Below are positions 38,826 to 41,507 of a stretch of 60,706 nt of DNA, piece by piece; the first letter of the stretch is position 1; each line of letters opens with the position of its first letter. The notes below the pieces were generated by a model. It was not told the DNA's origin. It ran no database searches and saw only the letters and a list, made by a program, of their open reading frames with translations. The translations under genes were made by a program, and so were the position numbers. The DNA comes from Candidatus Saccharimonadota bacterium (GTDB lineage Bacteria; Patescibacteriota; Saccharimonadia; CAILAD01; BJGX01). Location: the NCBI GenBank assembly GCA_014191035.1, contig BJGX01000004.1, positions 1 through 60,706 of the forward strand, read 5' to 3'.

Positions 38826-41507
38826 ATGAAAATTAGCGTTGATTTAATAAATTCATATCTGATAAATAAGCTTTCTACCGAAAAGATGGCTGAAGTAATT
38901 GAGCGAACAGAAGTAGAGGTTGAAGAAATTCTGTATGCGAATAAGCTAGATGAAAAAATAATTACGGCTAAAGTAGTTGAAGTTATTAAACATCCAAATG
39001 CAGACAAGCTTAATAAAGCCAAAGTTGATAATGGAATTGCATTGATAGATATTGTATGCGGCGCACCAAATATTCGCGAAGGTTTAGTTGTTGCTCTTGC
39101 TCAAGTCGGATCAGTATTGCCTGATGGCTTTGAGATTAGAGAGGCTAAAATACGAGGTGAAGTTTCTCACGGAATGCTATGTTCAGAAAAAGAGTTAGCT
39201 TGGGGTGAAGATCATGGTGGCATTGTTGAGCTCGACCCTAGCCTACCTATAGGCCAATCATTGTGCGACACAGCAAAAATGAGTGATATCATAGACATTA
39301 AGACACCTTCGAACCGCTGGGACTACTTATCTTATGTCGGGCTAAGTAGGGAAATAGCTGCTTGCGATGATCAGAATTCACTAATTGAACCAGAAACTCA
39401 CGAAATAACATATAAAAACAGGGAAGTCGCAAAAGTCAATAAAAATGAAGGTTGTGAATCTTTTTATACTGTGAAAGCCCGTGTGAAAGCTGATCAAATA
39501 AGCCCTCGTTGGCTTGTGGATAACTTACAGGCATCGGGTGTTCGCACAATAAATCCTGTTGTAGATATTACTAATTTTGTAATGCTCGAATATGGGCAGC
39601 CCTCTCATGCTTACGATATTAATAAACTAAACGGCCCTATCGGTGTTAGGCTGGCTAAAAATAACGAACAGCTCACCACTCTGGATGGTAAGCAGCTTAA
39701 ATTAACTGATTCAGATTTGGTAATTGTGGATAACTCTGGGGCTGTAGCGCTTGCAGGTGTTATGGGAGGCACACGTACACAGACAGACGAAGAAACTACA
39801 GAGGTTCTGATTGAAATAGCTAATTTTGACAAAACAATAGTTCGGCGCTCTGCGCTTAGGCATGGCATTAGAACCGAAGCGTCTGCACGTTTTGAAAAAG
39901 GGCTTCCATCCACTCTCCCCTCTCTGGCTGCCAAAAGAATTATAAAATTACTAATAGAGATCTGTGATGCTGAAATAATAGATGCAAATGAACAATTGTA
40001 CTCCCCTTCCCCTATCCGCAATTTAGGAATGAGACTGAGAAAGGCTGACAAATTTATTGGCTACAGGCTGGATGAAAAAGAGGTGATGACCGCGCTTACG
40101 AAGCGTGGCTTTCAGCCAACCCATTTTTCGCTCACCAAAGAGACAAAAGCTCACATTGGAAAGCCATATATGTATGGGGCGCAAATAGACACTGAAAATC
40201 TTGAAAAGTTTGATTGCTCATTATTAACTAGCTATGTATATTCAAAGGCCGGATTGGATATTGGCAGAACTGCTCAGATGCAATTCGAAAAAGGAATGGA
40301 AGTTCCGGAAGCAGGATTAAAGCCAGGAGATCTTTTATTCCTTAAAGGTGATGAAAAACAAGCAGGCAAAAAAATAGGGCATGTTGGCATGTACCTCGGG
40401 CGCAGTGGCATATTGCAAGCTAGCTCCACTGAAAAAAAAGTTGTTATTAGCCCCGTCACTAAATTTACTAAAGCCAAAAACTATGCTGGAGCCAGAAGGT
40501 ATATAGAGAACTTTAATCATATTATTAGTGTCACTGTTCCGTGGTGGAGAGCAGATGTTGTTGGCGAGGCAGATCTATTAGAAGAGATTGCGAAGACTCA
40601 AGGCTATAATAACATGCCCGAAACATTGCCTGATTTTGGGCCAACACCAACTTTAAATCATCAACTACTACCCTCTTTAATGATCTTAAGGGAAAAGCTA
40701 GTTGCACTAGGCCTAATTGAGGTAATGACATATGCTTTTGTTTCTAAAAAGGACATCGAAAATTTAGGTATAAAAGATTCGGAAATACTAAAAATAGAAA
40801 ATCCACTGAGTTCAGAGCAAGATTATTTAAGGACTAGCTTACTACCAAGTCATTTAAGGGCAGCTTATAACAATCAAAAATCAAACTACAACTCAATGTT
40901 TGAAATAAGTAGAGTATCTAAAAAACAGGCTGATGGAGCTGAAGAAAAATGGGCTTTAGGAATTACGGTTTGGGGGGACGATAGCCTACTTAGACTTAAG
41001 GGCTTGATTGACAGTATCTTTGGTTGGCACAAAATAGATCCTAATATTGAGCGAACTAAAGATAGTTCTTTATATATAGATCAAAGATCGGCAAACATAA
41101 AAAACTATGGAGACTTTGGTCAGCTCAAGCCAGCACTGCTAAAGAGTTTTGGACTAAGAAATGAGCTTTCATTTGCCGAGCTAGATATTGAAAAAATTAT
41201 TAATAGTGATTTTACAATTAAAGCCAAACCGCTACTCCCTTACCAGATAATTTATAAAGATATCACCATTGAGTTACCCATGACCACTTTATATACTGAA
41301 TTAAAAATAAAACTTAATGGAATAACGCATAGCGTTGATTTTGTAGATGAATTTTCTAATGACGAGTTAATAAATAGTTCTAGAAAACGCCTAACTATAA
41401 AGGTAGGTTTTGACTTGGGTCCTAATCCAAAATCCGATGAAATCTCAAAGCATCTGCAAGCCTGCTCCAAAAAACTTGAGACATTAGAAAAAGCTAAAGT
41501 ATTATAG
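38826..41507 (+). CDS. pheT: Phenylalanine--tRNA ligase beta subunit carrying an inserted NlpC/P60-like domain
   Basis: Contains the tRNA-binding OB domain ([14 protein letters not shown]), B3/4, B5, the core domain and a C-terminal FDX-ACB domain. About 129 extra residues (aa 437-565) carry GKPYMYG...FDCS...GDLLF...GHVGMY. Confidence 0.9.
   Translation: [893 protein letters not shown]

Follow-up and report, generated by a model that had tools for sequence, protein, structure and literature searches.

PheRS genes of the window and a domain inserted into PheT

The window (the whole stretch of DNA analysed, i.e., positions 1 to 60,706 of contig BJGX01000004.1 from Candidatus Saccharimonadota bacterium) encodes both subunits of phenylalanyl-tRNA synthetase (PheRS) on its forward strand, with the β subunit (PheT) harbouring an NlpC/P60 (C40) domain inside its B5 domain. 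The α subunit is encoded by pheS (37848-38825; Pfam tRNA-synt_2d, E 1.9e-89, and Phe_tRNA-synt_N). According to the list of open reading frames (ORFs), pheT (38826-41507; 893 amino acids, aa) starts at the base following the end of pheS, i.e., with zero gap. PheT scores 563 bits with the equivalog profile TIGR00472 (cut-off 402.65), identifying it as a bona fide bacterial PheT, aligns to PheT of E. coli (3pco_B) and contains the Pfam domains tRNA_bind, B3_4, B5 (partial), CLM and NLPC_P60.

The N-terminal half of B5 (approximately aa 397-432; 40014-40121, forward strand) aligns to E. coli PheT up to residue 438 of the latter, and is represented by the elements E4-9, H10-17, H23-32 and E36-39 in an AlphaFold2 (AF2) model of aa 395-600. 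The C-terminal half (aa 564-594; 40515-40607, forward strand) carries the PWWRxD...DLxEE motif with its invariant alignment columns. The B5 Pfam profile matches solely in this second part (profile positions 37-67), indicating that B5 is split by an insert. Relative to E. coli PheT, the insertion spans aa 433-569 (40122-40532, forward strand), as supported by alignment, Pfam, AF2 and Foldseek: phmmer pairs aa 17-432 of the window protein with residues 17-438 of 3pco_B, and aa 570-689 with residues 447-565. Some 137 residues thus occupy the place of about 8 in E. coli PheT, in agreement with the short E. coli gap given in the first-pass annotation, which had proposed the NlpC/P60 domain inside B5 from the sequence alone.

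This proposal is borne out by Pfam scan, E. coli alignment and structure prediction alike. The NLPC_P60 profile (PF00877) is matched over its whole length (1-105/105) by aa 445-558 (40158-40499, forward strand; E 2.7e-20, 72.7 bits, cut-off 23), and aa 437-565 (40134-40520) scored alone reach 77.9 bits (E 6.6e-22). A profile search of the PDB retrieved the Clostridioides difficile autolysin Acd24020 (7cfl; E 9e-20), with the positions of the catalytic Cys, His and third residue aligned. The predicted catalytic residues are Cys464 in an FDCS motif (motif start 40209, codon 40215-40217) and His519 in a GHVG motif (GHVGMY starting at 40377, codon 40380-40382), the coordinates of both codons having been predicted exactly. 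The third triad position, 12 residues past His519, is occupied by Gln531 (ILQASS starting at 40410, codon 40416-40418), which pairs with the third catalytic His of 7cfl, likewise as anticipated. The order of the motifs, i.e., Cys (FDC464S) followed by His (GH519VG), corresponds to the non-permuted NlpC/P60 topology.

The AF2 model of aa 395-600, built from a 30-sequence alignment, has a mean predicted local distance difference test score (pLDDT) of 91.4 and a predicted template modelling score (pTM) of 0.86. Foldseek comparison of this model with the PDB yielded 66 matches at E <= 0.001, and all 50 matches listed are NlpC/P60 domains. The best match is 7cfl_A (target-normalised template modelling score, TM, 0.84; root mean square deviation 2.4 Å; 35 % identity). 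The insert is, therefore, confidently predicted to adopt the papain-like α+β fold of the NlpC/P60 family. It represents a complete NlpC/P60 domain in a surface loop of B5, with Cys464 as nucleophile, His519 as general base and Gln531 as orienting residue. The domain is internal to the cytoplasmic PheT and carries no secretion signal, supporting the cytoplasmic location assigned to it at first pass.

The B3/4 editing domain (aa 214-380; 39465-39965, forward strand; Pfam B3_4, E 4e-60) precedes the insert. The E. coli editing-site residues H265, G318, E334, T354 and A356, the roles of which are described in the literature (including PMC12449066), correspond to H261, G314, E330, T350 and A352 of the window protein in the alignment to 3pco_B, and all of them are kept. 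Tallies among relatives reveal the same conservation in PheTs with intact, degenerate or no insert, of the Saccharibacteria and the Parcubacteria type (see below) alike. The possibility that the insert substitutes for a decayed B3/4 site was, therefore, rejected, since H261, E330, T350 and A352 are kept regardless of the state of the insert. Because the canonical editing site is undecayed, the insert represents an addition rather than a replacement. At the C-terminus, about 105 residues following CLM (aa 789-893; 41190-41504) give no match to Pfam PF03147 (FDX-ACB, B8) in the window protein, while this profile scores in many PheT relatives; the FDX-ACB anticodon-binding domain of the window PheT is probably present but diverged.

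Conservation, decay and origin of the insert

The best 120 relatives of the window PheT, obtained from a search of a 5.8-billion-protein collection, share 36-97 % identity with it and together with the window protein form an alignment set of 121 sequences. Nearly all of these relatives comprise 870-960 aa, most have a precomputed PF00877 match, and the named ones belong to Candidatus Saccharibacteria. Both Cys and His are retained in 91/121 sequences, down to 36 % identity. Among these 91, the third triad position is variable (Q 29, H 20, E 19, M 12, T 9, N 2), with Q, H, E or N present in 70. About 29 of the 121 still possess an insert of 97-152 aa and have lost Cys and/or His, and a single protein (P0103, 783 aa) has only 9 residues at the insertion site, resembling E. 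coli PheT and indicating clean deletion of the domain. In a neighbour-joining tree of the non-insert columns, degenerate forms appear at no fewer than five separate places, and P0103 is the sister of the strongly degenerate P0098.

For pairs of proteins sharing less than 60 % identity outside the insert, the identity between intact inserts is 48 %, as compared to 45 % for the remaining PheT, whereas that between degenerate inserts is 28 %, as compared to 49 %. Judged from these sequence comparisons, the intact domain is under purifying selection at least as strong as that on the synthetase itself, and this constraint collapses after loss of the catalytic residues. The contrast is most apparent between the intact P0004 and the degenerate P0012, where flanking segments of 89-97 % identity enclose inserts of 43 % identity. 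The inserts of P0011-P0013, all with similarly conserved flanks (89-97 %), share 43-48 % identity with that of P0004, are about 20 residues shorter and have lost Cys and His; this may reflect a recombinational replacement of the insert or, alternatively, rapid decay close to neutrality. Structure prediction still gives the degenerate P0012 insert an NlpC/P60 fold (pLDDT 84.9; TM 0.64 to Spr/MepS), with the non-catalytic RipD among the Foldseek matches, and the C-terminal insert segment ...TK..Y.GARRY.NFNH is kept even in degenerate forms. Since several lineages have lost the catalytic residues yet keep the fold and one has deleted the domain, its activity would be accessory rather than essential. 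Repeated decay and a single deletion fit a quality-control function, without proving one.

The insert extends beyond Saccharibacteria. When 1.84 billion representatives (clustered at 50 % identity) were searched with a profile built from the insert only, 62 proteins were retrieved at E <= 1e-30 and as many as 8647 at E <= 1e-10, with PheTs accounting for 53 of the best 150 matches. Two classes of insert-bearing PheT are apparent: the Saccharibacteria type of about 910-970 aa, and a second class of 780-850 aa that has no N-terminal tRNA_bind domain and carries NLPC_P60 at the identical point of B5, i.e., after profile position 34-36. A search with P0234 identifies the second class as PheTs of Parcubacteria/Patescibacteria; in the neighbourhood of P0234 the insert is present in 34 PheTs, with Cys and His in 34/34, and absent from 86. 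The survey of orthologues suggested by the first-pass annotation thus found the insert in nearly all sampled Saccharibacteria PheTs and in a subset of those from Parcubacteria. Taxonomic spread was judged from protein-database names (Saccharibacteria, Parcubacteria, Patescibacteria group, Giovannoni-, Colwell- and Yanofskybacteria). Bacterial-type PheT fragments with the insert also form the P0226 cluster (P0284, P0285), labelled 'Candidatus Aenigmarchaeota archaeon' by NCBI; this label probably results from a contig of the candidate phyla radiation (CPR) mis-binned into a DPANN metagenome-assembled genome.

In both classes of PheT, the PY motif is followed by GA in place of GG and a 9-residue spacer precedes FDC (168/173 PheT inserts), as compared to spacers of 5-7 residues in ordinary NlpC/P60 proteins. 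The DNA pattern TWYNNNNNNGGNGCN{28,28}TTYGAYTGYN{108,108}GGNGAYNNNNNNTTY matches the window and, at the protein level, 85/120 homologues. Because the insertion site (B5 profile position 34-36) is identical and the GA/9-residue spacer is shared, these sequence features favour either a single origin of all PheT inserts or their transfer from one pheT gene to another. In a neighbour-joining tree of the domain, the Saccharibacteria cluster stands apart from a Parcubacteria cluster mixed with free-standing proteins and fragments, a tree too weak to settle the origin.

Recent horizontal acquisition of the insert was rejected, since its composition equals that of the gene and the window (GC 0.393 for the insert, 0.382 for the rest of pheT and 0.393 for the window; GC at third codon positions 0.333 for the insert and 0.301 for the rest of pheT) and since it is present in many independent assemblies. 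An assembly chimera or frameshift, considered at first pass as a possible source of artefact, was also discarded: the insert is found in over 200 PheTs from independent assemblies. It is an ancient feature, passed on vertically and common to PheTs of many CPR/Patescibacteria.

Free-standing relatives, fusions and gene neighbourhood

The nearest relatives of the insert outside PheT are small proteins that make up a large family in Parcubacteria lineages (Giovannoni-, Colwell- and Yanofskybacteria, Paceibacterota) and are annotated merely as 'C40 family peptidase'. The 119 members sampled have a median length of 149 aa; 118/119 start with Met, the domain motif begins at a median residue of 20, and a hydrophobic N-terminal stretch is found in only 1/119. 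All sampled members possess GA (or GT) combined with an 8-residue spacer. The combination of GA and an 8-9-residue spacer near the active site is common only to the PheT inserts and this sister family. From their sequences, the free-standing proteins are predicted to be cytoplasmic stand-alone versions of the PheT insert. Net charge, considered as a hint to tRNA binding (on average +8 for free-standing members, +3 to +5.5 for PheT inserts, +2 for other NlpC/P60 domains), was discounted, since AT-rich genomes encode Lys-rich proteins.

In four contigs (L007; L008, i.e., CP066687.1; L015; L093), a free-standing NlpC/P60 gene is located directly upstream of a gene for a single-chain PheRS-like protein (Giovannonibacteria-like CPR; L007 6466-7602, L008 6450-7598, L015 1332-2465 and L093 5483-6667), the stop of the former and the start of the latter being separated by 12 nt or overlapping by 4-11 nt. 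The single-chain protein (378-394 aa) consists of a PheS core (tRNA-synt_2d) and FDX-ACB, with neither B3/4 nor β-subunit domains. Its best PDB match is human mitochondrial PheRS (E 1e-53), and its scores with TIGR00469 (pheS_mito) and NF051887 ('PheS-related mystery ligase SrmL') fall slightly short of the respective cut-offs. Comparison among the four pairs yields 51-70 % identity for the NlpC/P60 proteins and 60-87 % for the ligases, a divergence that argues for a conserved pairing rather than one recent event. A C39_2-like gene (7187-7765) is also located near the pair in L093.

Two types of fusion connect the domain to further tRNA enzymes, each full-length fusion being present in two independent sequences. 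An NlpC/P60-QueH fusion of 333 aa (L013 242-1240, also P0232; QueH E 4e-58) is followed by a SerRS gene, and a TYW3-NlpC/P60 fusion of 318 aa is encoded in L014 (2773-3729, also P0251; TYW3 E 2e-41). Position 37 of tRNA-Phe is the site of TYW3 action. TRM5/TYW2, i.e., archaeal-type wyosine genes, are also present on the L014 contig, which is probably archaeal; murein is, therefore, not expected in this organism.

A PheRS-like neighbour was found in at least 4 of 17 sampled contexts of free-standing genes, while a gene picked at random from a 0.7-Mb genome (approximate size) would be expected within a few kb of a PheRS gene in approximately 1-2 % of cases. Added to the insertion itself, this adjacency is well beyond chance expectation; the association with tRNA enzymes is recurrent, not universal. 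In L022 and L026, a free-standing gene lies 1.2-2.1 kb from pheS on the opposite strand, with an integrase between them in L026, representing a weak association. The apparent operon L011 3679-5929 comprises murA, an NlpC/P60 gene after a 5-nt gap and a gene for a C39-like papain-fold peptidase overlapping the NlpC/P60 stop.

A different type of proximity was observed among about 65 more distant NlpC/P60 loci (profile scores of roughly 70-125 bits), where a gene for an ordinary protein with SH3b and NlpC/P60 domains is located about 0.7-0.8 kb downstream of pheT in three distinct arrangements (L034 2730-3848; L063/L081/L086/L087 2619-3857; L092 2832-3872). Some of these contigs probably originate from human gut metagenomes. 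Their gene order could be clade-specific synteny or a hint at how both genes first met.

Within the window, pheT is followed after 36 nt by a gene for a YkuD-type L,D-transpeptidase with PG_binding_4 (41544-43013, forward strand; Pfam), from which the first-pass annotation had derived a possible link of the insert to cell-wall metabolism. Both genes are part of a conserved order, i.e., RmuC, TrpRS, small membrane ORF, pheS, pheT, YkuD, small ORF and an ATPase resembling DUF8128/type IV secretion system ATPases (window 35520-45885; L002, L004, L005, L006), which is maintained among Saccharibacteria PheT relatives down to about 38 % identity. Since this order does not change with the state of the insert, being found with intact (L002, L003, L004), degenerate (L005) and missing inserts (L006) alike, a functional tie to the transpeptidase was rejected and the suggested link is unsupported. 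Elsewhere, the window contains a class A RNase P RNA (4193-4565), a tmRNA (18455-18847; tag peptide APAYAPAFA) and a 16S rRNA gene (55788-57303) followed by tRNA-Ile(GAT) (57845-57921) and tRNA-Ala(TGC) (57972-58048).

Possible function and comparison with known systems

Because the catalytic residues are kept, the domain is located in the cytoplasm and coupling to tRNA enzymes is repeated, we infer an active cytoplasmic thiol hydrolase with a substrate linked to tRNA rather than the murein sacculus. With less than even confidence, the insert may be a module for thiol-dependent hydrolysis or acyl transfer, the substrate of which would be an acyl group bound to tRNA, and may provide a second proofreading or recycling site. 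NlpC/P60 enzymes act via a thioester acyl-enzyme on Cys, and such enzymes cleave esters as readily as amides. PheRS, or in the relatives the single-chain PheRS-like ligase, QueH or TYW3, would serve as a tRNA-binding platform presenting acylated tRNA to the domain; the partner types bind tRNA, namely tRNA-Phe in three of the four. B5 packs against the B3/B4 editing module and the α subunit (PMC12449066). Cys464 would attack the acyl (ester) bond of wrongly or abnormally acylated tRNA-Phe, candidate substrates being non-cognate, D- or N-blocked aminoacyl groups not handled by the retained B3/4 site, and water would then hydrolyse the resulting thioester on Cys464. The outcome would be a second proofreading or recycling activity alongside the canonical B3/4 site. 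In pairs of the Giovannonibacteria type, the free-standing protein may supply a hydrolytic site in trans to a ligase without one. Editing-domain loss in Mycoplasma resembles the decay of an accessory hydrolytic domain in reduced lineages, by analogy only. Of the roles listed at first pass, an added hydrolytic or deacylating activity is the one favoured by comparative genomics, and muropeptide recycling is a less probable alternative.

Several points weigh against this proposal. The reach of the domain to the 3' end of the tRNA is presumed. The closest characterised relatives are murein D,L-endopeptidases, and the family motifs (PRT..Q, PGDL.F) are kept, for which reason a γ-D-glutamyl-type amide would still be a natural substrate. 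Free-standing copies are also found near unrelated genes (RecG, sigma-70/DnaG, murA with a C39-like peptidase, LPG_synthase_TM), and the QueH and TYW3 fusions are rare. The B3/4 residues are intact whatever the state of the insert, leaving no compensatory pattern that would hint at editing. Finally, 21 inserts that are intact in other respects have Met or Thr at the third position of the triad.

One alternative is a cytoplasmic murein-peptide amidase, which would retain the ancestral endopeptidase chemistry on γ-D-glutamyl-diamino-acid bonds and cleave imported or recycled muropeptides (e.g., L-Ala-γ-D-Glu-Lys/mDAP from the host wall) for amino-acid salvage, with PheRS as a mere stable, constitutively expressed carrier. 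Such a role would agree with the best sequence and fold matches, all of which are peptidoglycan D,L-endopeptidases, with the canonical p60 motifs, and with the one free-standing relative 5 nt downstream of murA. CPR bacteria are auxotrophic epibionts relying on salvage, a lifestyle counting for this amidase as well as for the supply of phenylalanine considered below. However, repeated joining to two PheRS architectures, QueH and TYW3 and the presence on an archaeal-type contig would be unexplained, and the YkuD neighbour lends no support. Moreover, a free cytoplasmic γ-D-Glu endopeptidase would endanger UDP-MurNAc-peptide precursors unless its specificity were restricted. Overall, this amidase appears unlikely.

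Cys464 might instead take Phe from Phe-AMP or Phe-tRNA-Phe as a thioester and hand it to an amine acceptor (peptide, lipid or cell-wall precursor), similar to LRAT/HRASLS. The cytoplasmic location, the tRNA-enzyme associations and the shared GA/spacer features apply equally to such an aminoacyl-transfer module, its acyl-enzyme chemistry is identical to that of hydrolysis, and several family members show faint Pfam LRAT matches. These matches are, however, below the Pfam cut-offs, the gene context suggests no acceptor and the QueH fusion has no link to Phe; such an aminoacyl-transfer role is quite improbable.

To a similar degree improbable is a mainly structural or regulatory module, i.e., a scaffold at the junction of B5, the α subunit and B3-B4 or a surface for binding a partner or ligand, with vestigial catalysis. 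It would account for the roughly 29 of 121 Saccharibacteria-type PheTs that lack Cys and/or His while keeping 97-152 aa of insert, a loss that took place independently no fewer than five times in the tree, and likewise for the predicted NlpC/P60 fold of the degenerate P0012 insert and the C-terminal segment conserved in degenerate forms. On the other hand, the large majority of inserts have invariant Cys and His despite their deep divergence, among them 34/34 of the Parcubacteria type, the insert evolves much faster once they are lost (28 % vs 48 % identity; 43 % for P0004/P0012 between flanks of 89-97 %), and P0103 deleted the domain cleanly. This invariance, the fast drift after loss and the clean deletion argue for catalysis as the selected trait. 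A substrate-supply amidase freeing L-Phe from N-acyl-Phe, γ-Glu-Phe or a small peptide beside the synthetase, in organisms unable to make Phe, would agree with the PheRS-specific association (the insert and four operon pairs with the PheRS-like ligase) but is very improbable, since TYW3 and QueH bind tRNA and not phenylalanine, and since no other synthetase has an equivalent solution though every amino acid must be acquired.

Beyond the tRNA-directed hydrolase proposed for PheT, one may speculate, with credible though clearly less than even probability, that the insert, its free-standing relatives of about 150 aa and the QueH/TYW3 fusions constitute a family of papain-like thiol hydrolases associated with tRNA that has so far gone unrecognised, present in CPR bacteria and probably also in archaea of the DPANN type. 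They would then represent a new structural class of domain for aminoacyl-tRNA proofreading (or aminoacyl transfer) in cis or trans, derived from the fold of cell-wall hydrolases.

Full-text literature searches found no mention of an NlpC/P60 or C40 domain in PheRS or any other synthetase, consistent with the first-pass impression of an undescribed architecture. Public databases already attach PF00877 to insert-bearing PheTs, and NCBI names some fragments 'C40 family peptidase'. The architecture is genuine, old and conserved, and has apparently not been described before. Few enzymes have been studied as closely as aminoacyl-tRNA synthetases, and the folds known for their editing domains are few. 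The PheT insert is a conserved and apparently active Cys-His hydrolase in the PheRS of a large part of CPR/Patescibacteria, and exemplifies the re-use of a murein-hydrolase fold in the cytoplasm. If the proposal is true, translation in minimal-genome organisms would gain a new quality-control or acyl-transfer activity, and a first functional handle would be available for the common CPR 'C40 family peptidase' proteins of about 150 aa. Should the domain be a muropeptide-salvage enzyme instead, it would be relevant to the way in which epibionts exploit host cell walls as food. Close relatives with intact, degenerate and deleted inserts represent natural experimental controls, and Saccharibacteria are now culturable and genetically modifiable, allowing direct testing.

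Compared with C40 D,L-endopeptidases of the p60 type (Acd24020, 7cfl; CwlT-like Tn916 hydrolases; LytE/CwlO of B. subtilis; MepS/Spr of E. coli), the PheT insert is alike in fold, motifs and catalytic order, sharing the Cys at a helix N-terminus, the His 55 residues on and the polar residue 12 further. In contrast to these enzymes, it has neither signal peptide nor wall-binding module, is embedded in a cytoplasmic synthetase, has GA for GG after PY and a longer pre-Cys spacer, and is associated, through its gene contexts, with tRNA enzymes rather than wall enzymes. The insert has the sequence and fold properties of NlpC/P60 but not the export or wall-binding modules that give access to murein, and classification as a peptidoglycan endopeptidase is, therefore, not warranted. 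The non-catalytic NlpC/P60 protein RipD of Mycobacterium tuberculosis resembles the degenerate inserts (P0010-13, P0018-31 and others) in keeping the fold without Cys/His; RipD, however, is a secreted peptidoglycan-binding protein, whereas these inserts are internal to PheT and fast-evolving.

LRAT/HRASLS acyltransferases and YaeF/C92 amidases, which represent intracellular branches of the NlpC/P60 superfamily, are, like the insert, cytoplasmic papain-like Cys-His enzymes operating via an acyl-thioester. The LRAT/C92 branches are circularly permuted or membrane-anchored, contrasting the non-permuted p60 topology of the insert, and matches of the family to Pfam LRAT and Peptidase_C92 are weak and below cut-off. 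The ligase partner of the free-standing relatives shares the make-up of PheS core and FDX-ACB with mitochondrial-type PheRS (FARS2; 3cmq), also without B3/B4, but differs from FARS2 in being bacterial (CPR), in scoring below the cut-offs of TIGR00469 and NF051887 and in being paired with an NlpC/P60 gene.

With respect to architecture, the insert resembles the cis-editing domains (B3/B4 of PheRS; CP1 of Leu/Ile/ValRS; INS of ProRS) and trans factors (YbaK, AlaX, DTD, CtdA) in being a predicted hydrolytic domain within or beside a synthetase. Unlike these, it has a papain-like thiol hydrolase fold and co-occurs with a canonical B3/4 site that is still there; to our knowledge, no established editing domain has a Cys-His nucleophile of papain-like fold. 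The region beside B5 is an insertion hot spot, and in Altiarchaeales the gene is split (PMC4975002). INS/YbaK and B3/B4/CtdA exist fused and free-standing (PMC12449066). As with these synthetase editing domains, the NlpC/P60 insert is accessory, lost in some reduced lineages and known in fused and free-standing forms, a resemblance to cis-editing insertions that would hold for architecture and distribution only.

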